A stretch of DNA of 64,000 bases from Candidatus Onstottus frigus (GCA_038040445.1 JBBPIG010000002.1:257847-321846); one strand, 5' to 3'. Positions 29,104-41,371 are shown, counted from the first letter of the stretch. Notes: a model not told the origin generated them from the letters alone. Program-made: numbers and translations.

Positions 29104-29126
29104 CTTTGATGACAAGGAGCACTAGA

Positions 29127-30068
29127 ATGGACTCAAGCAAAACTACGCCAGGACACACTACCAACGGCGAGGAGTGCTTTGTGGTTATGCCGGTACGTGA
29201 TCCTGACGGCTACGCACCGGGACATTTTAAGCATGTGTTCGATGATATATTCGCACCCGCTTGTGACAAGGCTGGGTTTCGACCGATTCGCGCAGACCAG
29301 GTTCGAGCGACAAATCTCATACACCTGGACATTTTGCAAAAGCTAATCGAATCACCAATGGCGTTATGTGACTTAAGCAGTCGGAATCCAAACGTACTCT
29401 TCGAGTTGGGGCTCCGACAGGCTTTTGACCAACCAGTAGTCCTGGTTCGGGAAATTGGCACAGATGACATTTTTGATATCGGTCCGCTTCGATATACCGA
29501 GTATCACAAAGAGCGTATTTACCATGAGGTACTTGAAGATCGGGAGAAGATCGCAATTGCGATAGGCGCCACGCGCGAAGCATTCGAGAGTGGGCAAGGA
29601 GTCAACTCAATCATCAGATTACTGTCGCTCAGTCAACCCGCGAGCTTGGCCGATTTGCAAGAAGCTGACAGGGATCCCCTTCTCCAAATAATACGCGCTG
29701 AAATGAGTGAATTGAGATCTGAGTTTAAGGCTGCCTTGAGAATATCTGATGCTTCGCAGCTTGCGTGGGTCGCACGCTCGCTTCGAATCAACGAGGCAGT
29801 TGAGGAGATTGCTCGTCGCCAATTGGATAAACTTCAACAGGACTTATCAATTTCAGCGTCACTCGATTCTGAACCCGGGCCTTGGGCAGAGAGGAGAAGG
29901 AAGAAATGGGAATTGATTAAAGACGGGATAGGACTTTTAACGACCATGAGGCGAGCCGTAGGAGAAGAGTCAGACCTACTTTCGTCAATCAGCGCTTTAG
30001 CGAAGCGTTACAACGATGCCGAAACAGAGTACCTTGATGAAGAGATTGAAAACATAAACCCGAGTTGA
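29127..30068 (+). CDS. Nucleoside-2-deoxyribosyltransferase-like / TIR-like (flavodoxin-fold, SLOG-type) N-domain fused to a ~190-aa coiled-coil region
   Basis: AAGGAG 8 nt upstream of ATG 29127; ECFVVMPV…ALCDLSSRNPNVLFELGLRQAFDQPVVLV ('MP' + 'NPNVxFELG…PV' motif); rest is heptad-rich helical; ~49% GC. Confidence 0.5.
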   Translation: MDSSKTTPGHTTNGEECFVVMPVRDPDGYAPGHFKHVFDDIFAPACDKAGFRPIRADQVRATNLIHLDILQKLIESPMALCDLSSRNPNVLFELGLRQAFDQPVVLVREIGTDDIFDIGPLRYTEYHKERIYHEVLEDREKIAIAIGATREAFESGQGVNSIIRLLSLSQPASLADLQEADRDPLLQIIRAEMSELRSEFKAALRISDASQLAWVARSLRINEAVEEIARRQLDKLQQDLSISASLDSEPGPWAERRRKKWELIKDGIGLLTTMRRAVGEESDLLSSISALAKRYNDAETEYLDEEIENINPS

Positions 30069-30133: not shown

Positions 30134-32170
30134 ATGGAAGAAGTATTCGGCCCGGGCGGATTAATCGCCCAACATCATCCCAACTACGAATACCGGCCCG
30201 GCCAGGTCGAGATGGCCGAGGCTGTCAACAATATCCTTAAGGACGGCGGCCTCGCCTTGATCGAAGCCGGAACCGGAACCGGCAAAACGCTCGCGTATCT
30301 GATACCCGCCATCGCAGCCGGACGCCGTGTGCTTGTGTCAACCGCGACAAAGAACCTCCAAGAGCAACTGCATAAAAAAGACGTTCCCTTTCTTCAACAG
30401 ATCATCCCGCGTGAGTTCAAAGTCACTTGCATGAAGGGCCGCTCGAATTACGTTTGCCTTCATCGGATGAAGAAGGCCGCCGGCACGCCGATGTTACAAG
30501 GACTCGAAGAGATCGATTACTTCGATCAGATTCGGAAATGGGCGGCCGAGAGCAAAACCGGCGACCGTGCCGAGCTAACCGACCTCCCCGAAGACCTTTC
30601 ATTCTGGCCCCAGATCGACGCGCGAGCCGATACGTGTCTCGGCCAGAAGTGTCCGGACTTTGACGCGTGCTTCATAACGCGAATGCGGCGCGAGGCGATG
30701 GAGGCCGACGTGGTGATCGTCAATCATCATCTCTTCTTCGCCGATCTCGCGCTGCGCGGCGGAGACTACGGCTCGGTGCTGCCCGACTACAATACGGTTA
30801 TCTTCGACGAGGCGCACGAGCTTGAAGACGTTGCCGCTTCTTACTTCGGCACAAGCGTTTCGAACTACCGCGTGAATGACCTCGTCCAAGATGCAAACAA
30901 ACTCGCGATCAAAGAGCCCGAACAGCAAGGAGAGTTGCTAAAGGCGCTGGCGAGATTGACTCAGCGATCGGATATGTTCTGGCTATCGTTTCGCGGAGGC
31001 AGCCTCGACGACGATTCGCCGGAAGGCGGCGGCAATGCTTCGCCATCCAGTGGCCGGTGGCAATCGAACAGAAACACATACCGGCCCCGCGGCTCTTCAC
31101 TGGATGGACGCTATCCGCTGAGCAGCTCGCGGTTCGCTCGAGTCGATCGCGAAGACAACCTTACACCGACCGCGACCGGTGAAGCTTACATCGCGCTCAG
31201 TAATGCCATCGATCGTCTGACAACCATGCTCGGCGTCGTGAAGGACCCGCCGGCGGAACTCGACAACATCGTTCGGCGAGCACAGAGCCTGAAGTTCGAT
31301 CTTGAGTTCGTCGTGAGCTGCGATCAGCCGGATTTCGTCTACTGGTGCGAAAAACGCGGCCGAGGCGTGTTCATCAATGCGACGCCGATCGACGTGTCCG
31401 GCATACTGGAAGAAAACCTCTTCGCCAAGTTGCAAACGGCCGTGCTGACTTCGGCAACGATGACCGCCGGTGCAGCCTTTGATTTCATCCGCGGCCGGCT
31501 CGGCATTCGACAAGCTCGTGAGTTGATCGTCGAATCTCATTTCGATTTTAAGAAGCAGGCAGTGCTTTATCTTCCCCGCGGCATGCCCGACCCGCGAAGC
31601 CGTGACTTCCTGGACGCGTCGGTGGACGAAATCGTTCGGATTCTGGAAGCGACTCGAGGGCGCGCGTTTGTGCTGTTCACGAGCCTGGCTTCGATGCGCG
31701 AGACGCACGAGCGAGTGCGCGACTTGATCGACTATCCAACTTTCATTCAAGGCCAGGGTTCAAAGACAGGTCTGCTCGATCGCTTTCGAAAGACTGAAGG
31801 GGCGGTGTTGTTTGCGACCTCTTCGTTCTGGCAAGGCGTTGACGTTCAGGGCGAAGCGCTCTCCTGCGTGATCATCTCGAAGCTGCCGTTCGCGGTCCCC
31901 AGTGATCCGGTCGTCGCCGCTCGCCAGAAATACATCGACGATCAAGGCGGCAATTCGTTTTATCAATACTCGGTGCCTCAAGCAGCGATCACCTTGAAGC
32001 AAGGTTTGGGCAGACTGATTCGTTCAACTAGCGACAAAGGTGTCCTTTCGATATTGGACCCGCGAGTGAAGACGAAGTCCTACGGAAGGGTTTTTCTCCA
32101 AAGCATTCCTCAATGCCGCGTGACTTCAAGCATCGAGGAAGCAGCGGCGATCTTCACGGATCATACCTAG
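30134..32170 (+). CDS. DinG/XPD (Rad3)-family ATP-dependent DNA helicase with FeS-cluster cysteines
   Basis: Walker A AGTGTGKT; four Cys (CMKGRSNYVC…C…CPDFDAC); DEAH box FDEAHE; helicase C-terminal motifs; ~70-aa low-complexity Ser/Gly/Arg insert. Confidence 0.85.
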   Translation: MEEVFGPGGLIAQHHPNYEYRPGQVEMAEAVNNILKDGGLALIEAGTGTGKTLAYLIPAIAAGRRVLVSTATKNLQEQLHKKDVPFLQQIIPREFKVTCMKGRSNYVCLHRMKKAAGTPMLQGLEEIDYFDQIRKWAAESKTGDRAELTDLPEDLSFWPQIDARADTCLGQKCPDFDACFITRMRREAMEADVVIVNHHLFFADLALRGGDYGSVLPDYNTVIFDEAHELEDVAASYFGTSVSNYRVNDLVQDANKLAIKEPEQQGELLKALARLTQRSDMFWLSFRGGSLDDDSPEGGGNASPSSGRWQSNRNTYRPRGSSLDGRYPLSSSRFARVDREDNLTPTATGEAYIALSNAIDRLTTMLGVVKDPPAELDNIVRRAQSLKFDLEFVVSCDQPDFVYWCEKRGRGVFINATPIDVSGILEENLFAKLQTAVLTSATMTAGAAFDFIRGRLGIRQARELIVESHFDFKKQAVLYLPRGMPDPRSRDFLDASVDEIVRILEATRGRAFVLFTSLASMRETHERVRDLIDYPTFIQGQGSKTGLLDRFRKTEGAVLFATSSFWQGVDVQGEALSCVIISKLPFAVPSDPVVAARQKYIDDQGGNSFYQYSVPQAAITLKQGLGRLIRSTSDKGVLSILDPRVKTKSYGRVFLQSIPQCRVTSSIEEAAAIFTDHT

Positions 32171-32207: not shown

Positions 32208-32320
32208 ATCCGCGCAAATCCGCCGGATCAGTGTCATCCGTGGTCTATGCGGCACTAGCAAACCGATTCTTCCGAACGGATAGACCACCGATGAAACGGA
32301 TTCGACGGATTTGCGCGGAT
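32208..32320. mobile_element. MITE-like ~110-bp palindromic element, copy A
   Basis: Terminal inverted repeats ATCCGCGCAAATCCG…CGGATTTGCGCGGAT and inner arms CATCCGTGGTCTAT…ATAGACCACCGATG; homologous copy at 63088-63186. Confidence 0.55.
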
Positions 32321-32820
32321 CTCTTATCGGTCACCAGTTGAAGACGGACTACGCCGCCGCCATCACCGCCTACCGGGAGGCGTTCGAGCTGTGGCGCACC
32401 TTGTCGGTCGAGAGCGTGGACGTGGCCACCGCCCTGAACGACCTCGCGGGTGCCGAGCAACTCTGCCGCGATCTTGAGGCGGCGGAGCGAGATTATCGCG
32501 AGGCGCTACGAGTCGCCCGCGCGGTCGGTTACGTCGAGGGAGTGGCCGACTTCACTGGCAGTCTGGCTGCGCTGGCGCTGGATCGGGAAGACTGGACGGG
32601 GGCCGAGACCTTGGCCCGCGAGGCACTGCCCTTGTCCGAAAAGTTGGGCCGCCAGGAACTGATTGCCCTCGACAGTAGACGCCTCGCCCAAGCGCTGGTG
32701 CGGCAGGGCAAGCCCGCCGAAGCCCTTCCCCACGCCCAGCGGGCGGTGGCAATCTTCACGCGGCTCGGCTCGCCCGAGCTCGAAGACGCCCGCGAGATCC
32801 TGCAAGAGTGCCAGTCTTGA
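32311..32820 (+). CDS. TPR-repeat protein (short, possibly 5'-truncated by the adjacent element)
   Basis: TPR-like helical repeats; TTG start lies inside the palindromic element; 68% GC. Confidence 0.45.
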
Positions 32821-33404: not shown

Positions 33405-35480
33405 ATGGCAATAAAGAAGCAGCCACTTGTTTTGGGTGACCAAAGTCGCAAGTGTCAACCGCGTCTTCGGATGATCGCCAACGGGAGCGATAAGGTTAAC
33501 ACGGTAAGAGCCGAGCAATGTTCGTCGCTCTCGGTAACGAACTCCAAGCTTCTCAAAGAGATTCCCCTCCTGCGCGGCGAGGATGCGGTCCCATTGAAAA
33601 GGATCGAGCTTCCAAAAAGCGTCATGCCCAAGACACAAAAGCAGGTGCCCGCGGATATTCTCGCCAATGTCTTCATCGAAACACTCGATGCCACGGCGCC
33701 GCAGAAACGAAAGTTTCCCGGAGAGCGGGCGCGGAAATCGAATCTGGTGACCGCTCAGGTTCCTCTCAACAAGATCAAGGAGATTGCCGCCAGGGACAAC
33801 GTTACTTACATAGAGCTGGGCGAACGGCTCGCCGCACCCACGCCAACAGTCTCCGCCAAATCAGTCGCGGCGCCCTCCCAATCCCTGCGCCGATTCGGCA
33901 CCGCACAGCAAAGGAAGAACGCTGAGAATGTGCTGATAGGAATCATAGACGTGCAGGGCTTCGACTTCTCACATCCCGATTTTCTTGATGCCGGCGGGCA
34001 GACCAGGTTCGTACGGATCTGGGATCAAGGAGGCTCGACCCGCCCGCACCCAAAAGGCGTCAAGCAATTCGCTTACGGATCGGAATTTCGTCGAGAGCAT
34101 CTGAATGCCGCGATTGCGGCCGCGCCCAAACTCAAGCTTCCTCCTTTTGAGTTAGAACCGCAGTCACAGATGGCGGTTGGCTCGCACGGCACACACGTGG
34201 CTAGCATTGCTGCCGGCAATCGCGGCGTCTGCCCTGAGGCTATGATCGCCGGTGTGGTCATATCGCTTCCGGCGGCAGATCAGGACCGGCGTAAATCCTT
34301 TTACGATTCGACGCGCATTGCCGACGCCGTTGATTATCTCGTCAACCTCACGGCCGAGTTCTCCGCCAAACGGAAGGAGCCTGTGCGCCTGTCGGTCAAC
34401 ATCAGTCTGGGCACCAATGGACACGCGCACGATGGTTCGAGTGCGATCTCGCGCTGGATTGACGCCGCGATGTCCCTTCCGGGTCGCTGTGTTTGTGTTG
34501 CCGCGGGCAACGCCGGACAAGAAGTCGCCGCCTTTGAAGGCGACAGCGGATTCGTCATGGGCCGTATCCACACCAGTGGCGGCGTCCCCGCACGCGATCT
34601 GGTGAAAGACATCGAGTGGCTAGTGGTGGGCAACGGGATCGCGGATGTTTCCGAGAACGAGCTGGAGATTTGGTACAGCCCGCAGGACCGCTTCGCTGTG
34701 ATGGTTCGTCCGCCCAATTCGACGCAATGGATCGGCCCGGTTGAGCCCCGCCAGTTTATCGAGAATCGGCAACTCAAGGACGGGAGTTTTCTGAGCATCT
34801 ACAATGAGCTTTACTATCCGGCGAACGGGGCCAACTACATTTCGATCTACCTTTCGCCGCTGCTTTCCGAGAAGGGAATCGTCGGAGTGCAGGCCGGACG
34901 CTGGACGGTACGCTTGCTCGGGCGCGAGGTGCGCGACGGCCGCTATCACGCATGGATCGAACGTGACGACCCGCGCCCTCAGGGCCGGTTGGGCGAGCGG
35001 GAGATGTGGCGATTCCCCTCCTTCTTTTCCGAAGCGTCGAATGTTGACAACTCATCGGTCAGCTCGCTGGCCTGCGGCAACCGCGTTATCGGTGTGGCCA
35101 ACCTGGATGACGCGGCCGAGCGCATCCACATCACAAGCAGTCAGGGGCCAACTCGGGACGAGCGAAACAAGCCGGACACGGCGGCTCCAGGCACGAATAT
35201 CCCCGCAGCCAAGGGTTTCGCCGGGCCTGATGACCTGTGGATCTCGATGACCGGCACCAGCATGGCCAGTCCTTTCGTAGCCGGCGTCGCCGGACTGATG
35301 CTGGGCGTTGAGCCGAAACTCACCGCGGCGCAACTCGAAGGCATCATCATCCGCACCGCCCGCCCTCTGCCCGGGGCAAGCTTCAAATGGCTTAATGATT
35401 CGGGCTTCGGAAGGATTGATCCCGATGCTTGCCTGGCAGAAGCGGCGATGATCAATCAACGGGAGGACAAAACAAAATGA
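33405..35480 (+). CDS. Subtilisin-like S8 serine peptidase, apparently intracellular (no signal peptide)
   Basis: Asp GIIDVQGFD, His GSHGTHVASIAAG, Ser GTSMASPFVAGVAGLM; ~180-aa N-terminal region of unknown function. Confidence 0.85.
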   Translation: MAIKKQPLVLGDQSRKCQPRLRMIANGSDKVNTVRAEQCSSLSVTNSKLLKEIPLLRGEDAVPLKRIELPKSVMPKTQKQVPADILANVFIETLDATAPQKRKFPGERARKSNLVTAQVPLNKIKEIAARDNVTYIELGERLAAPTPTVSAKSVAAPSQSLRRFGTAQQRKNAENVLIGIIDVQGFDFSHPDFLDAGGQTRFVRIWDQGGSTRPHPKGVKQFAYGSEFRREHLNAAIAAAPKLKLPPFELEPQSQMAVGSHGTHVASIAAGNRGVCPEAMIAGVVISLPAADQDRRKSFYDSTRIADAVDYLVNLTAEFSAKRKEPVRLSVNISLGTNGHAHDGSSAISRWIDAAMSLPGRCVCVAAGNAGQEVAAFEGDSGFVMGRIHTSGGVPARDLVKDIEWLVVGNGIADVSENELEIWYSPQDRFAVMVRPPNSTQWIGPVEPRQFIENRQLKDGSFLSIYNELYYPANGANYISIYLSPLLSEKGIVGVQAGRWTVRLLGREVRDGRYHAWIERDDPRPQGRLGEREMWRFPSFFSEASNVDNSSVSSLACGNRVIGVANLDDAAERIHITSSQGPTRDERNKPDTAAPGTNIPAAKGFAGPDDLWISMTGTSMASPFVAGVAGLMLGVEPKLTAAQLEGIIIRTARPLPGASFKWLNDSGFGRIDPDACLAEAAMINQREDKTK

Positions 35481-36826
35481 AGCTGACCGTCTTTCAATCC
35501 GACAAGGGGGACTGCCTTCTGCTGACAGGCGCGGACGGGCGACGGATGCTGGTCGACGGCGGAATGCGTGCCTCTTATTCAGAGCACGTCGCGCCCGCGA
35601 CGGGCAAGCTGCGCGACAACGGCGAGAACATCGACGTCGTTTACGTCTCGCACATCGATCAGGATCACATATCGGGCGTGCTGCAAATGATGGACGACGA
35701 AGTTGCCTGGCGCATTCATGATTTCCAGGTGACTAACGACAACCCCAATCATAAGGAGCCCGATTCCCCACGCCCGCCGAAGGTCGCCCAGATTTGGCAT
35801 AACGCCTTTCACGACCAGATCAAAGACAATGCCGGTGAGATCGAGGAAATGCTGGCGGCTTCGGCGGCTATCCTCTCAGGCGCTGGGAGAGAGTCCGTCA
35901 GAGAGCTTGCGTCGGCGCAGGACGAGCTGGTGACAAGCATCGCCGAGGCGATCAAGCTGACCAAGCGCGTCAGCCCGGCTCAACTCGGCATCAAACTGAA
36001 TGTCCCGGCCAAGGGAAAGCTGATGCTGGTACGCCCCTCAACCACCGCCGCCATCAAACTCGGCGGCATGCGGTTCTCCATCATCGGGCCATTCTCCGCG
36101 GACCTGACGAAGCTGAGAGCGGAATGGAACAAGTGGCTGACCGATAATAAACCGCAGCTAAAATCCATACAGGCAGCGGCCAAAAAAGACGAGGCCAGTT
36201 TTGGCGCCGCCGAGATCGACGACCTCCTTCTGCCGAAGCTCGCGCAGGCGGAGCAGATGAGCGCGCTCTTGACGCCGGACGACTTGGCAACGGCGTTCAA
36301 ACTCGGCGAGCGCGAGAATGTTACAACTCCGAATCTCGCCTCGCTGATGTTCTTCGTCGAAGAGAATGGAAAGACGCTGCTTCTGACAGGCGACGGTCAC
36401 CATTTAGATATCTTGAAGGGTCTCAAACACATCAAGAAGCTGAACGGTTCGGGGGGTATCCACGTTAATGTTCTGAAGGTCCAGCATCACGGCAGCGAGC
36501 ACAACCTTAATGAAGCCTTCTGTCGAGCCGTCACCGCCGACCACTATGTTTTTTGCGGAAACGGTAAACATGAGAATCCTGACTTGCAAGTGATTGAAGC
36601 GATCGCGGATTCGCGCATCAGCACTGGCGCGAAGCTCAGCTCAAACCCTCAAGTGGGCAACCCGTTCAAGTTTTCGGTGAACAGCAGTTCAACCGTAACG
36701 AAAAACGCCGAGGCTAAGGCGCACATGAAGAAGGTTGAAAAACTCTTCAGCAACCTCGCCAACAAGAGCAATGGAAAGATGAGCTTTTTCTTTCTCAAAG
36801 GTTCGAGCTTCGAGGTTCAGATATGA
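35477..36826 (+). CDS. MBL-fold metallo-hydrolase-like protein (variant HxDxDH motif)
   Basis: VYVSHIDQDHISG, later LLLTGDG and KVQHHGSEHN; GGGAGG RBS; ATG overlaps S8 stop (ATGA). Confidence 0.6.
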   Translation: MKLTVFQSDKGDCLLLTGADGRRMLVDGGMRASYSEHVAPATGKLRDNGENIDVVYVSHIDQDHISGVLQMMDDEVAWRIHDFQVTNDNPNHKEPDSPRPPKVAQIWHNAFHDQIKDNAGEIEEMLAASAAILSGAGRESVRELASAQDELVTSIAEAIKLTKRVSPAQLGIKLNVPAKGKLMLVRPSTTAAIKLGGMRFSIIGPFSADLTKLRAEWNKWLTDNKPQLKSIQAAAKKDEASFGAAEIDDLLLPKLAQAEQMSALLTPDDLATAFKLGERENVTTPNLASLMFFVEENGKTLLLTGDGHHLDILKGLKHIKKLNGSGGIHVNVLKVQHHGSEHNLNEAFCRAVTADHYVFCGNGKHENPDLQVIEAIADSRISTGAKLSSNPQVGNPFKFSVNSSSTVTKNAEAKAHMKKVEKLFSNLANKSNGKMSFFFLKGSSFEVQI

Positions 36827-37943
36827 GACCTGCGCCGGCTCACCAAGCCGCATAGAGGTGTTGGTTTCATCGCACAAAGGGAATCCGTCTATGAGCGCGC
36901 CAAAGAGAAGGTCAATATCCTCACCTGTGCCCATTCCGCGCTTCAGCGTGTCAGCGGCATTTTTATTTTCCTTCAACCTCGCGAGGTCATCGCCGGTCAG
37001 ACCAGACGCATCGTCATTGATGTTCTTGATTTTGGTCCCGCAAAAGTCGAAGAGCCGTTCCAGCTTTTGGTCCGGCGTTGAGGCGTTGGCAATCGTCGCC
37101 TGAGCCGCTCGTCTTATGTCGTCATTCACCTTCATCTTTGACGTGTATTCATCGTAAACACTCTTATTGAAATCAACTGACATCGAGTATCGCGACGGCT
37201 GGTAAAAGGCGGGCATCCAGGAGCGCACCTGGTCCTCGGGAGGCATGTGAGGCTCATAGTGAAACCCGTGCACGTTGGTCATCGAATCGCTGAAACGTTT
37301 GTCCTTCTCCATCACCATCGGCGTGGATGCCATATTAAACGGCTTGGCGCGAAAGCCCAGAAATATCTCGGAGGAGGTCTTCAGGGTATACTTAACGAGT
37401 TGAATCGGAATGTCTCTCTGAAAGCTCAGACGCGCGAAGTAGCCCGAGGAATCGTGTCTCACTTCGCGCCAGCGATACTCAATTATCACACCCGGTTCCA
37501 CAGCCGGCATCGCAAATGTCTTTGCATTTATCTTGACGCGGCGAAGCTTAACAAGCGTGCTGTCGAAGATGGCTTCGTTCTTCAGCTCTACTATCGTGCC
37601 GTCGGCTTTGATGGTGCGTCCGGCGATGTCCTCGATTGTTCTTCGAAGAGTAAAGGAGTTCTATTTTGCTGCGCAGTTCTTTGCCGCGCTCTGTGAATAT
37701 CTTTATGCGGACGTAGTTCGCAAACACGGTCTTGCCGGGGCTGAAGTCCACTTGCACGTCCCAGAATATCGCTTCTGCGTCCGCGTCTGGTTCCACGACC
37801 GGCGCTTTCAAGGCGAGATGGGCCGGGTCAACGGGTTTCCAGTCAATGGGTCTCCGGTCATCGCCGGCGAGCGCCGGGACGGCTGCGAGCAGGAAACAAA
37901 CGAGAGTAAAGAACACGCGTGCACGTACACGATGTGACGTCAT
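36689..37943 (-). pseudogene. Secreted DUF3857-like protein interrupted by a single frameshift (two ORFs 37548-37943 and 36689-37510)
   Basis: Upstream ORF has signal peptide and ends in out-of-frame junk; +1 frame near 37640-37660 continues as …TIEDIAGRTIKADGTIVELK… directly into downstream ORF MPAVEPGVIIEYRWREV…. Confidence 0.5.
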
Positions 37944-38508: not shown

Positions 38509-40035
38509 TTACTTCTGAAACACCTTATCAACGGGGATCACCTCAACCTTCGTCGGATTGAAATTCAGCTTGTAGCTCTCGATGATCTTGTCTTCATCCA
38601 GGATTTCTTTCGGAGGCAGTGACGTGTAGCTGATCGGCGAAGGCTTGCCCTCGACCGCCGCTTGCTTGAACGCTTCGGCGTCTTTCGTCACCACCGCGAT
38701 CTTAACGTTGTCCGCTTGCAGGTGTTTCTTGATCGCTCGATTCGCATCTTCGAGCTTTAGCTTCGCAAGCTGATCGCGCACATAATCGGTGAAGCCGGGT
38801 ATGCCGTAGTACTTGCTGTCAATCGCGTAGCCCAACTGCGCGTTCTGTGTCTTCGTCAGAGCGTTCACGTTCTTGGTCAGAAACCGCCGCGTCGCCTCGA
38901 AGTCCTCTTGTGACATTCCACTTTGCACAAGTTTGTTCAGCTCATACAACGCGGCGCGCAATGAGAACACTCCGTTCTTAGGCTCGACCGGTCGAATCCA
39001 CACCTGGAAGATCTGCTGGCGCCGGCCGAGGTTCGGGTCAGGCTCGAACTGAAACATCCCGCGAGGAAAGTATTCGATATAAGCATAGTCGCCATAGTTC
39101 AGCCCGCGAATCTGTCTGAGCCGCTTATAGAGGTAGCTGTTGCTCGATCGGTGCTGGCCGAAATACGACTGTACCAGTAACAGCGCGGGCCAGTCCGGAT
39201 CGGACCGCGTGACCGAGATCGGAAAGCCGAATGATATCGCGGTGCCCGGCGTGTCCTTCTGAATGATTTGCATCTCGAGGCCGCTGATTTTCTCAGGTTG
39301 AGCCAGCGTGGGCTTCGACGCCGCGCCCGCCGGGAGCTTTGCGGCGACGTCCGATTGAATTTTCTCTTCGAAGCCCTTCGGATAACCGCCCGCCAGCCCG
39401 AGAACGAAGTTGTCCCGCCTGTAGTTGTCCCGGTAGAACCTCTTCAAATCGTCGATCGTCAGTTTCTCGAGCGACTCGACCGTCCCGACGTTTTGATGCC
39501 CATACGCGTGACCATTGTAAATCGAAACGTACAGCGCTTCCTTGCCGAGCTCCTCATCATTGTTGCCGCGAAGGCTCTCTTTCAAAAAGTTGATCGCGTC
39601 GGTGCGAAGGCGAGTGAAGTCATCCGAGCGAAAGCCCGGATCGAGCAACATGCCCGAGATGATTTGATAGTACTTTTGAAGATTGTCGGCATGCGTCGTG
39701 CCAACGAAGACCGTCATCTCTTTGTCTACTTGCGAGCCGAAGCCGGTTGCCATCGGGTACATAGCCTCAGAGATTTGTTCGTAGCTCATCGCGCGGCTGC
39801 CGCCATCCGAGATCATCGCGGCGGTCAAAGCGGCCACTCCCTCTTTGCCTTTGGGGTCCGACGCCGAACCGGCATTGAACAGCAAACGAAAGCTCACCAG
39901 AGGTGAAGAGTTGGGCAGGAGCACTGATGCCATGCTTGAGGAAGCCTTTCCGGCCCGCGCGAGGCCCATACCCGGCGCGGCGACCGCCAGGATCAACGTG
40001 ACTGCAATCAGCGCCAGCCGGCTACTTGCTCGCAT
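38509..40035 (-). CDS. M16-family peptidase, non-catalytic (M16B-like) subunit
   Basis: Signal peptide; insulinase fold without HxxEH; overlaps and follows catalytic partner. Confidence 0.8.
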   Translation of the reverse strand: MRASSRLALIAVTLILAVAAPGMGLARAGKASSSMASVLLPNSSPLVSFRLLFNAGSASDPKGKEGVAALTAAMISDGGSRAMSYEQISEAMYPMATGFGSQVDKEMTVFVGTTHADNLQKYYQIISGMLLDPGFRSDDFTRLRTDAINFLKESLRGNNDEELGKEALYVSIYNGHAYGHQNVGTVESLEKLTIDDLKRFYRDNYRRDNFVLGLAGGYPKGFEEKIQSDVAAKLPAGAASKPTLAQPEKISGLEMQIIQKDTPGTAISFGFPISVTRSDPDWPALLLVQSYFGQHRSSNSYLYKRLRQIRGLNYGDYAYIEYFPRGMFQFEPDPNLGRRQQIFQVWIRPVEPKNGVFSLRAALYELNKLVQSGMSQEDFEATRRFLTKNVNALTKTQNAQLGYAIDSKYYGIPGFTDYVRDQLAKLKLEDANRAIKKHLQADNVKIAVVTKDAEAFKQAAVEGKPSPISYTSLPPKEILDEDKIIESYKLNFNPTKVEVIPVDKVFQK

Positions 40036-41371
40036 TTTGTTTCTCCTTGTGCGCGAGAACCACCGTCGTGCGCTTCGTCTCGACGAAGTACTTGCGGGCC
40101 ATCTGCTGAATGTCTTGTGGCGTGATCGAAGCGTACAAATCGTAAAGCTTGTTCAAGGTTTCCGGCGTGCGCTTCAGTGAAATGTACGGAGCAAGGTTGG
40201 CGGCTAGCGCTTCGGAGTTATCCAGACTCAGCGCGAAGCCGTACTTCAGATTCGACTTCACCGCGTTCAATTTGTCGGCCGCGACCGGCGTCGTCCTGTA
40301 CGAGTCAAACGCCTTGATCAGCTCCGCCTTCGTGTACTCGATGTCCTTCGGGTCTTTGACACGAGCCACAACCGTCAATAGGTAAGGATCGCGATGGTCT
40401 TCAAAATCGGCGAAGATCGTGTCAACCCTCTGCTCCTTGATGACCAGCTTCTGATAGAGATCCGAGGTCTGCGAGAAACCGAGGCTGCTGATCAGGTCAA
40501 GCGCGGGCTTGTCCTTCTGATCATCAGAGTAGGCCGGACCTTTGAACGAGACTGCGACCCACGGCAGCGTTGGCGTGGGCCAGGCAACTTCGGTGGATAG
40601 CGGGGCGGTCTGTTCAGCCTCAGTTGGGATCTCCGGTGTGTAGTTGCCGCGCTTCCAGCCGGCCCAATACTTGTTGACCATTTGCAAAACGGCGTCGTGC
40701 TTAACGTCACCGGCGACGATGATGGTCACGTATTCGGGCCGATAGTAGCGCTTGAAGAACTCGAGGCTGTAGTCGTACATATTCGGCATGTTCTCGACGT
40801 CGCGCAGGAAGCCCATCGTAGTATGCTGATAGGTGTGAGATTTGAAAGCGATCTCGCGAAGCGCCTCGTAGATCTTGCGCACCGGACTGGAAGCGTTCTT
40901 GTTATACTCGCCCAGCACCGCTCGGGTTTCGGTCTTGAAGAGATCCACGGGCACCTTCAGATTCTGAAAGCGGTCGGCTTCGAGCATCATTATTTGATCG
41001 AGGTCTTCCTTCGAGAATACAGTGTGATAGACAGTGCGGTCGTCGCTGGTGTAGGCATTCGAATCCGCGCCGGCGTTCTTCAGCGCTTCGTTGTATGCGT
41101 CAGCCGAGAACTTCTCCGTGCCGCGAAACATCAGATGCTCGAACAAGTGAGCGAAGCCCGACTTGCCAGGTTCGACCTCATTGCGCGAGCCGGTGTTCAC
41201 GGCTATGTAGAGCGCGACGATGTTCGGGTAATCGGTCGGAATGGTGATGACCCGCAACCCGTTAGGCAGATCGTCGGTGAAGTATTTGTACGGGAAAATC
41301 TTGTTCTGAGCTGGCGTGGTCAATGGCATAACGATACTCAAGAGAAGAAGCGATGCTTTGAACAATCTCAT
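40022..41371 (-). CDS. M16-family (pitrilysin/insulinase-like) zinc peptidase, catalytic subunit
   Basis: Signal peptide; inverted zinc motif GFAHLFEHLMFRG (HxxEH) and downstream Glu. Confidence 0.85.
   Translation of the reverse strand: MRLFKASLLLLSIVMPLTTPAQNKIFPYKYFTDDLPNGLRVITIPTDYPNIVALYIAVNTGSRNEVEPGKSGFAHLFEHLMFRGTEKFSADAYNEALKNAGADSNAYTSDDRTVYHTVFSKEDLDQIMMLEADRFQNLKVPVDLFKTETRAVLGEYNKNASSPVRKIYEALREIAFKSHTYQHTTMGFLRDVENMPNMYDYSLEFFKRYYRPEYVTIIVAGDVKHDAVLQMVNKYWAGWKRGNYTPEIPTEAEQTAPLSTEVAWPTPTLPWVAVSFKGPAYSDDQKDKPALDLISSLGFSQTSDLYQKLVIKEQRVDTIFADFEDHRDPYLLTVVARVKDPKDIEYTKAELIKAFDSYRTTPVAADKLNAVKSNLKYGFALSLDNSEALAANLAPYISLKRTPETLNKLYDLYASITPQDIQQMARKYFVETKRTTVVLAHKEKQNASK

Follow-up and report, generated by a model that had tools for sequence, protein, structure and literature searches.

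What is the function of a gene pair in which a protease gene is translationally coupled to the gene of a predicted nuclease? This question is raised by positions 33,405 to 36,826 of a 64,000-nucleotide stretch of Candidatus Onstottus frigus DNA (GCA_038040445.1 JBBPIG010000002.1:257847-321846; the whole stretch is henceforth referred to as the ‘window’), where the gene of an S8 subtilase is directly followed by that of a protein with the metallo-beta-lactamase (MBL) fold. A preceding reading of this DNA without database searches (henceforth the ‘sequence-only reading’) had proposed that the two act as a functional pair, with a protease-activated nuclease and peptide maturation among its examples, and had found no named system to match them. 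Our favoured answer, to which we give a probability of roughly 0.55 and which is drawn by analogy with homologous systems, is that the subtilase would convert a latent ComEC-like DNase to its active form by cutting two insertions, most likely in the service of abortive-infection defence. A match does exist: the pair fits the published protease-associated MBL pro-nucleases (PMC12799240, PMC12642450), the latter report including an S8 clade. The kind of system is therefore known, and its S8-linked branch is already in print (Evans et al. 2025).

The subtilase and MBL genes form a conserved, translationally coupled pair

Coordinates are positions in the window, on the + strand unless otherwise indicated. 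The first gene (33405..35480) opens with an ATG and encodes a Csp-like subtilase of 691 residues without a signal peptide (Pfam Peptidase_S8, E = 6e-29); the second (35477..36826) encodes a protein of 449 residues which Pfam (Lactamase_B, E = 9e-7), PADLOC, NCBIfam and Foldseek mark as an MBL-fold, predicted ComEC-like pro-nuclease. The stop codon of the subtilase gene (TGA, 35478-35480) overlaps the start codon of the MBL gene (ATG, 35477-35479) in the sequence ATGA (35477..35480), the arrangement of translational coupling, and a GGGAGG Shine-Dalgarno sequence (35461..35466), spaced 10 nt from the MBL ATG, lies within the codons of the subtilase’s C-terminal R-E-D. A mechanical list of open reading frames (ORFs) opens the MBL frame at an upstream TTG (35429); we place the start at ATG 35477 because homologues align from there. 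The sequence-only reading had described exactly this anatomy (a signal-less 691-residue subtilase, the ATGA overlap with a 449-residue MBL-fold protein and an embedded ribosome-binding site), and the Pfam searches it had called for return the expected family for both proteins.

Neither protein contains a hydrophobic N-terminal or transmembrane-like segment by Kyte-Doolittle analysis, the maximum of the 19-residue mean over the first 50 windows being 0.34 for the subtilase and 0.37 for the MBL protein, and both are therefore predicted to be cytoplasmic. That the pair might instead be a secreted protease and a secreted nuclease used for nutrient scavenging would accord with the general knowledge that many S8 subtilases are extracellular and that soil bacteria secrete both types of enzyme. 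We consider this extremely improbable, given that the N-termini, devoid of any signal peptide or hydrophobic segment, are conserved as such and that the subtilase groups with the non-secreted Csp lineage.

Relatives of the MBL protein were sought in one genome per species across 185,579 species, and 372 species representatives (~0.2%) encode one. The best 80 of the 372 loci, which span at least 10 phyla, were kept, and 84 related loci were compared. The phyla represented among the best 80 are Acidobacteriota, Armatimonadota, Gemmatimonadota, Planctomycetota, Verrucomicrobiota, Chloroflexota, Actinomycetota, Bacteroidota and Myxococcota, together with Alpha- and Gammaproteobacteria and others. 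A full-length S8 gene of the same family lies directly upstream of the MBL gene, on the same strand, in all 82 loci that have upstream DNA (tblastn); the remaining two of the 84 end at a contig edge upstream of the MBL gene. The order S8-then-MBL is far above chance, and the pair is thus conserved in other genomes, as the functional link suggested by the sequence-only reading would lead one to expect. Between loci, the identity of the subtilases is correlated with that of the MBL proteins (r = 0.81, Mantel p = 0.001), with the subtilase being the more conserved partner in 99.6% of the pairwise comparisons. Each protein has >2,000 database relatives, with >100 clusters at 57-88% identity over the full length, and a protein pair with 100% identity to that of the window is on record from a metagenome-assembled genome (MAG) of the Acidobacteriota.

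The coupling is conserved as well. The S8 stop codon and the MBL start codon overlap by 4 nt in 60 of the 84 loci and by 1 nt in 10, and a Shine-Dalgarno-like core is present at -18 to -5 of the MBL start in 66 of 77 loci, compared with 7-10 of 77 in shifted control windows. Nothing above shuffled expectation was returned by a scan for promoters and terminators. The GC content and the GC content at third codon positions (GC3) of both genes equal those of their neighbours, and there is therefore no compositional sign of recent import. At 35461-35469 (CGG GAG GAC) the same bases make up the Shine-Dalgarno sequence of the MBL gene and the codons of the subtilase’s C-terminal R-[E/K]-D; the corresponding R-x-D motif is at least 70% conserved in an alignment of 71 loci, and the conservation of R-[E/K]-D may be owed to the ribosome-binding site no less than to the function of the protein. 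The subtilase frame of a few MAG loci (L041, 7967-11287; also L036, L052 and L078) is interrupted or continues into that of the MBL gene. We rejected these as S8-MBL fusions, for they are frame run-ons or frameshifts, probably arising from assembly or marking pseudogenes.

The MBL protein resembles gated pro-nucleases of bacterial immunity

MBL ‘gated pro-nucleases’ have been reported to recur with trypsin-like proteases in Hachiman, AVAST, Lamassu and DRT systems, and with caspases in ‘canu’ loci, the cutting of two insertions unmasking a DNase (Tuck et al. 2025, Science, PMC12799240); the same mechanism was described by Evans et al. (2025, bioRxiv, PMC12642450). The trypsin-associated homologues become Zn-dependent DNases, needed for defence, when two of their loops are cut after Ile (PMC12799240, PMC12642450). 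The MBLs that accompany proteases fall into three clades, one each for trypsin-like, caspase-like and S8 subtilisin-like partners, with experiments on the first only; the S8-associated clade (‘Clade 3’) appears in a tree and one sentence (PMC12642450). Full-text literature searches returned no further paper on S8-MBL pairs.

Several comparisons place the MBL protein of the window among these effectors. PADLOC gives full-length matches to LmuA (1.5e-46), Avs1a (2e-29) and the DRT-associated RTasMBL (1e-28), and the NCBIfam Avs1a model scores 135 bits (2.8e-39). This score is far under the equivalog cutoff of 420, which makes the protein an Avs1a relative rather than a true Avs1a. Its AlphaFold2 (AF2) model has a mean predicted local distance difference test score (pLDDT) of 76 and a predicted template modelling score of 0.79, with the core above 90, and the best solved structure found by Foldseek is the beta-lactamase-like nuclease domain of ComEC (9ic4, E 8e-8); a hidden Markov model (HMM) profile search of PDB sequences likewise ranks ComEC first (2e-9). 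The sequence-only reading had called the HxDxDH motif of the protein non-canonical. The motif is indeed present, as H59-I-D61-Q-D63-H64 (motif 2, metal ligands, 35651..35668), and it is invariant even in distant homologues and Avs1a; it is, however, typical of this nuclease subgroup, occurring in ComEC (THPDADH) and Avs1a (THIDGDH) alike, as does HHGS. The other elements of the active site are W-H108-N109 (35798..35803), whose His is a candidate for motif 3 and which is invariant in a six-sequence alignment including Avs1a and near-invariant elsewhere, the bridging metal ligand Asp306 (LLTGDG, 36392..36394; invariant, codon checked), and the invariant His337-His338 (36485..36490) of the ComEC-type motif KVQHHGS, which aligns with KVPHHGS of ComEC 9ic4. 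D27, H59, D61, D63, H64, D306, H337 and H338 are invariant across the homologue alignments. The metal ligands, which the sequence-only reading had singled out for inspection, are accordingly intact and invariant or near-invariant.

MBL folds are catalytically versatile, and it could be argued that the protein hydrolyses another substrate, be it RNA, cyclic nucleotides or a small molecule, with the protease regulating it or cooperating with it. Some close homologues carry precomputed matches to the Apyc1 (anti-Pycsar) MBL family PF23023, and phosphorylcholine esterase, CPSF73 and RNase J-type enzymes appear at lower rank in the Foldseek list. Against this, the ComEC nuclease domain is on top by both sequence and structure and shares HxDxDH and HHGS, the homology to MBL effectors shown to be DNA-specific extends over the full length, and the protein contains no beta-CASP domain. 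We therefore think a substrate other than DNA improbable.

What sets the MBL protein apart from ComEC is the distance between motif 2 and HHGS, which is ~250 residues compared with ~100 in ComEC (~150 extra). The only low-confidence stretches of the AF2 model are residues 111-164 (insertion 1, 35807..35968) and 241-287 (insertion 2, 36197..36337), with pLDDT below 50 within the first and at 241-273 and 279-287 in the second. Across the 71 aligned loci insertion 1 is moderately conserved and insertion 2 varies in length and sequence, with >50% gaps at ~260-274. As a reference we used Avs1a of Cupriavidus necator pHG1, taken from a genuine Avs1a-Avs1b-Avs1c locus. Its I134-S135 aligns to residue ~144 of the MBL protein, in insertion 1, and its I235-S236 to residue ~268, in insertion 2; this mapping is approximate, because the identity to Avs1a is only ~24%. 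Mapped cut sites in the published systems are I134 and I234 in EpiAvs1a, I133/S134 and I232/S233 in VcMBL, and I118 and I218 in HamM (PMC12799240, PMC12642450). The coincidence of the two insertions with the positions at which Avs1a is cut makes them candidate gating loops 1 and 2. A further difference from Avs1a is the C-terminal extension at residues 385-449 (36629..36823), which is modelled at pLDDT 90-97 and before which Avs1a ends in the alignment.

The subtilase is related to Csp and carries a conserved N-terminal region

The catalytic triad of the subtilase consists of Asp182 (GIIDVQG, 33948..33950), His261 (SHGTHVAS, 34185..34187) and Ser619 (GTSMASP, 35259..35261), with Asn369 (AAGNAGQ, 34509..34511) forming the oxyanion hole. 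All four residues are invariant across subtilase homologues and their codons were checked; Asp182 is conserved in at least 95% of the 71 loci. The nearest relatives of the protein by sequence and structure are the clostridial Csp germination subtilases. Foldseek places CspA, CspC and CspB on top (E 2e-28 to 1e-25), the next subtilase following at 1e-12, and an HMM profile search of PDB sequences ranks the relatives in the same order, Csp first. The best NCBIfam matches, both partial, are to CspBA and CspC, and they span a beta-rich insertion in the subtilase domain (residues 388-541, 34566..35027), an all-beta segment of the AF2 model that we take to be the equivalent of the Csp jelly-roll domain, as found in the CspB structure.

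The sequence-only reading had noted ~180 N-terminal residues of no recognisable kind. Such a region is present, but it is conserved throughout the family (~170 residues in the alignment of 71 loci) and can be divided into an extension, a prodomain-like unit and a linker. The extension (residues 1-84, 33405..33656) is conserved in the 71 loci and has no Pfam match even at E = 10; it includes a family-conserved motif, K-x-x-P-K-L-R-M-x-A-N-G-x3-V-N-x2-R-A-E, at residues 16-37. A phmmer search with residues 1-170 against 1.84 billion representatives returned only 181 proteins, which nearly always match from their own N-terminus and look like fragments of the same family; the region is therefore family-specific and not a shuffled sensor domain, and we rejected the idea that it is a modular domain. 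We infer a regulatory or autoinhibitory role for the extension. In the AF2 model, residues 85-138 (33657..33818) form a beta-beta-beta-alpha-beta unit (E85-93, E107-111, E114-120, H121-128, E133-138) that resembles a subtilase prodomain and may be an I9-type intramolecular chaperone and inhibitor. Foldseek alignments of the subtilase to uncleaved CspC and CspA cover >620 columns, and BLASTP against the propeptide of subtilisin BPN' gives only a weak local match (E 0.11); the Pfam I9 prodomain model has no match in the subtilase at E = 10. The candidate prodomain is joined to the catalytic domain by a Pro-rich linker of low confidence (residues 139-170, 33819..33914; pLDDT below 50 at 140-154), in which the Pro positions are conserved in the 71 loci and which is a possible autoprocessing region.

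The likeness to Csp bears on whether the subtilase acts on the MBL protein at all. Csp-type subtilases, of which CspB is the example, are non-secreted and normally act on a separate zymogen, pro-SleC, and translational coupling proves co-expression only, not a relation of enzyme and substrate. The two proteins of the window could thus work in parallel on third-party targets, in the maturation of a peptide or toxin or in the joint degradation of foreign protein and DNA, or the MBL protein could process or regulate the protease. This, too, has little probability in our view: no conserved third gene or precursor peptide accompanies the pair in the 80 loci, the MBL protein has two extra loops at the places where related pro-nucleases are cut, and the two proteins co-vary. 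The functional pair envisaged by the sequence-only reading is thus favoured in the form of a putative protease-activated nuclease, to which homology to MBL effectors, the ComEC-like fold and the two insertions point; its proposal of peptide maturation has no support, no conserved neighbour or precursor gene having been found.

Genomic neighbourhoods and distribution of the pair

All-against-all clustering of the ORFs within 10 kb in the 84 loci revealed no third conserved gene, the flanks being essentially unique to each lineage. A yebC-ruvC neighbourhood recurs in a set of related acidobacterial loci: L001, L003, L005, L007, L008, L010-L012, L014, L015 and L074 have homologues of yebC and of ruvC-proximal genes clustering with the pair, and in L001 and L003, where the gene calls were read, yebC (TACO1 family) is on one side of the pair and ruvC on the other. 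In the window genome and in L002 it is located elsewhere. We considered enrichment of defence islands around the pair and rejected it, since PADLOC matches among 140 immediate neighbours are sporadic and no clear enrichment emerges.

A search of plasmid proteins returned the same S8 and MBL pair, at 34-44% identity, on 12 rhizobial plasmids, most of them predicted to be conjugative. At 25-29% identity it returned MBL genes just downstream of other S8 peptidases, at 26% a caspase-hypothetical-MBL locus of canu-like type, and at ~24% Avs1a together with an ABC-three-component/SMC-linked MBL. Only the catalytic motifs are common to the window subtilase and the S8 partners in the 25-29% group, and the PADLOC ‘subtilase’ model fits those partners much better than it fits the window subtilase; the Csp-like partner may therefore represent a separate recruitment or a deep branch. 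In the viral contigs of IMG/VR there is no close copy of the pair, and two distant matches only.

Some copies of the pair have defence or mobility genes nearby. In R. indicum a Shedu SduA gene and kinase/PP2C genes adjoin it, in S. meliloti it is flanked by insertion sequence (IS) elements, in Rhizobium sp. NZLR1 TIR genes occur within 6-9 kb, and a cyclase-E2-TIR cluster adjoins one of the distant S8-MBL pairs of the 25-29% group. Patchy species distribution, conjugative plasmids, IS flanks and Shedu and TIR neighbours all speak for defence or mobility.

Three further arrangements were observed. An XendoU endoribonuclease gene with a Lamin Tail Domain (LTD) lies directly upstream of the subtilase gene on S. 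meliloti and Rhizobium plasmids (L088, 5568-6839; L091, 6568-7839), and a DUF2278 gene with an LTD lies directly downstream of the MBL gene in Chryseolinea (L060, 11289-12311; L066); the LTD common to flanking genes in two phyla could mark an accessory component or be coincidence. On Bradyrhizobium barranii plasmid pBb38S5b (L097), a canu-like caspase-hypothetical-MBL set stands back-to-back with an S8 peptidase and an AAA ATPase (an IetAS-like pair), and the island, which also adjoins a DUF2235 gene and is flanked by IS5 and IS1380, is a compact set of protease-based systems.

Other genes of the window

Upstream of the pair, a 678-residue helicase gene (30134-32170) matches the PADLOC model ‘typeIV_DinG’ (CRISPR type IV-A associated) at 5e-147. 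We rejected a DinG-like helicase as a defence partner: the protein is a YoaA equivalog (NCBIfam, 742 bits, cutoff 680) and is not conserved beside the pair, and the typeIV_DinG match is therefore likely to be a false positive for annotation in the style of defence finders. Between the YoaA and subtilase genes, a gap of 1.2 kb contains a 169-residue ORF of TPR_10/TPR_12 repeats that starts with TTG (32311-32820). With a GC content of 0.675 and a GC3 of 0.80, compared with ~0.56 around it, this ORF resembles what is left of the C-terminal part of a larger, foreign tetratricopeptide repeat (TPR) gene; as the remnant of a sensor of the STAND (signal transduction ATPase with numerous domains) type it was rejected, being neither conserved nor related to the TPR gene found upstream of the pair in L003. 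Further upstream, a 320-residue ORF of low GC content (0.49; 29106-30068) has no Pfam or NCBIfam match and a weak PADLOC match to a TIR effector (9e-6). In a Pyrinomonadaceae MAG a homologue with 30% identity (L009, 12214-12720, - strand) is found ~0.9 kb past the downstream end of the pair, which makes two loci with a member of this family close by, each arranged differently.

Downstream, a 273-residue ORF on the - strand (36689-37510) with a faint DUF3857 match shares 138 nt with the 3' end of the MBL gene when read from its first ATG, and its true start is probably further in. Two overlapping genes of M16 (insulinase-type) peptidases of 508 and 449 residues (38509-41371, - strand) also lie downstream; they resemble the usual combination of an active and an inactive M16 peptidase and are not conserved alongside the S8 and MBL genes.

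Discussion

The anatomy and coupling of the two genes, their strict co-occurrence, the intact catalytic residues of both proteins and the homology and fold described above are observations; from the characterised homologues we infer loop cleavage, DNase activity and an anti-phage role. On this basis we propose that the two genes make up a self-contained protease/pro-nuclease module, in which translational coupling on a single mRNA would keep the two products at a fixed ratio. The MBL protein would be a ComEC-like metal-dependent DNase held inactive by the insertions at ~111-164 and 241-287, which are predicted to mask the active site, and the Csp-like cytoplasmic subtilase would itself be latent, probably held so by the N-terminal extension and the retained prodomain-like unit. 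Once triggered, the subtilase would cut inside both insertions, the MBL protein so cut would degrade DNA indiscriminately, and the cell would be killed or arrested and phage replication stopped, as in abortive infection. As to the trigger, we offer the doubtful but possible suggestion that the subtilase is both sensor and executioner, with the prodomain-like unit and the N-terminal extension serving as an infection- or stress-sensitive latch, for example as a guard or decoy which infection would displace or degrade.

Several points weigh against this proposal. Cleavage by the S8 branch, DNase activity and defence are all extrapolated from proteins of only ~24% identity, the Ile-Ser cut sites of the trypsin-type systems are not conserved in the MBL protein, and the AF2 model of the subtilase is moderate only (pLDDT 68). 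There is no recognisable sensor in the pair, whereas the characterised systems sense infection through a STAND, HamA or LmuA module fused to the protease or through a partner protein (canu), and its absence must be met by assuming something new for triggering. The surroundings are also rather ordinary: the neighbours of the pair in the window encode serine hydroxymethyltransferase, the YoaA repair helicase and M16 peptidases, and of the 140 immediate neighbours, taken from 37 diverse loci, only a handful match PADLOC models, their Pfam content being heterogeneous and mostly housekeeping. Finally, the yebC-ruvC region is common to ~8-9 related acidobacterial loci (of which two are duplicates), and this position together with the high conservation of the pair looks more vertically stable than is the case for many defence genes.

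The same facts lend themselves to the main rival explanation, which keeps the biochemistry and changes the biology: a suicide or addiction module triggered by stress or damage, serving plasmid or genomic-island maintenance or DNA turnover in starvation. The lack of any sensor domain or gene, neighbourhoods that are mostly housekeeping with few defence matches, the stable yebC-ruvC position in several acidobacterial genomes and the presence of the pair on large conjugative plasmids would all suit such a role, and stress responses beyond phage defence have been raised for protease-effector modules by Evans et al. (PMC12642450). In contrast, all characterised relatives of the MBL effector act in anti-phage systems, some copies of the pair adjoin Shedu, TIR or cyclase-E2-TIR genes, and no antitoxin-like small gene is found. 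We regard a purely non-phage role as unlikely and retain abortive-infection defence as the preferred reading.

It was only late in 2025 that protease-gated pro-nucleases were shown to recur as effector cassettes in bacterial immunity, and experiments so far concern trypsin- and caspase-linked members with known sensors. The sub-family of the window is a minimal case of two genes with no recognisable sensor, and it is also found on plasmids of culturable Rhizobium and Sinorhizobium; culturable carriers include R. leguminosarum bv. viciae 248 (pRle248d), R. indicum (pPR13E04), S. meliloti (pRRI128_5) and Edaphobacter modestus DSM 18101. It raises the questions of whether the gating-loop mechanism extends to a third class of protease, what the Csp-like subtilase recognises and how triggering proceeds without a dedicated sensor. 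If the subtilase were indeed sensor and executioner in one, two genes would constitute a complete immune or suicide switch and define a sensor-less, minimal pro-nuclease logic, in bacterial parallel to the CspB-to-SleC zymogen cascade and to caspase-activated DNase. At a practical level, the analysis offers an annotation for thousands of gene pairs now listed as ‘S8 family serine peptidase / MBL fold metallo-hydrolase’.

Comparison with known systems

Among the known systems, the trypsin/MBL pairs (Avs1a/Avs1b, Avs2, Avs4, HamMAB, Lamassu and DRT) resemble the pair of the window in having a homologous MBL protein, an adjacent protease gene and two insertions that align approximately with the mapped cut-site positions. 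They differ in that the protease of the window is of the S8 type, the gene order is reversed (protease first), the identity to Avs1a is ~24%, no STAND, HamAB or LmuB sensor is present and the MBL protein has its extra C-terminal extension. More specifically, the pair does not belong to AVAST type 1, for neither a trypsin-like protease-STAND protein (Avs1b) nor Avs1c is encoded beside it and its protease has no STAND domain. Nor is it Lamassu, in which an SMC-like LmuB ATPase and LmuC adjoin the effector: no SMC/LmuB match occurs among the window neighbours and no third gene is conserved. The ‘LmuA’ match of the MBL protein reflects the shared MBL effector only. Beyond the S8 domain, its insertion and the family-specific N-terminus, Pfam, PADLOC, NCBIfam and phmmer detect no sensor domain in the subtilase, and no sensor gene is conserved beside the pair. 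IetAS likewise employs an S8 protease in defence, but the window subtilase has no IetS match at E ≤ 0.1, no IetA ATPase accompanies it and its partner is an MBL protein.

ComEC/Rec2 gives the best fold and HMM match to the MBL protein, with HxDxDH and HHGS in common; it is, however, a membrane channel protein without the ~150 extra residues that we presume to be regulatory insertions. Csp (CspB, CspA and CspC) provides the closest solved structures to the subtilase and shares the beta-rich insertion and a prodomain-like region, yet the identity is ~20% and the NCBIfam scores (101.8 bits against a cutoff of 1250, and 79.9 against 675) are low. The hosts of Csp are Firmicutes with SleC, whereas the host of the window pair belongs to the Acidobacteriota, has no SleC and pairs the subtilase with a predicted MBL nuclease.

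The canu system (CanABC) resembles the pair in that the gene of the (in the window, predicted) nuclease lies downstream of a non-trypsin protease gene and that the effector has two insertions, which are gating loops in canu and candidates for such loops in the window; it has three genes, including the caspase-family cysteine protease CanA and CanB, whereas the window has two genes and a serine subtilase. Other S8-MBL pairs differ from that of the window in their protease, the Csp-like window subtilase having only the catalytic motifs in common with theirs. The more distant MBL genes of the 25-29% group, which also adjoin S8 genes, agree with the published S8-associated clade. As regards this Clade 3, Evans et al. 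(2025) speak of ‘distinct sensor associations’ (PMC12642450), whereas the window sub-family is without a recognisable sensor; common to both is an Avs-type MBL homologue encoded beside an S8 protease.

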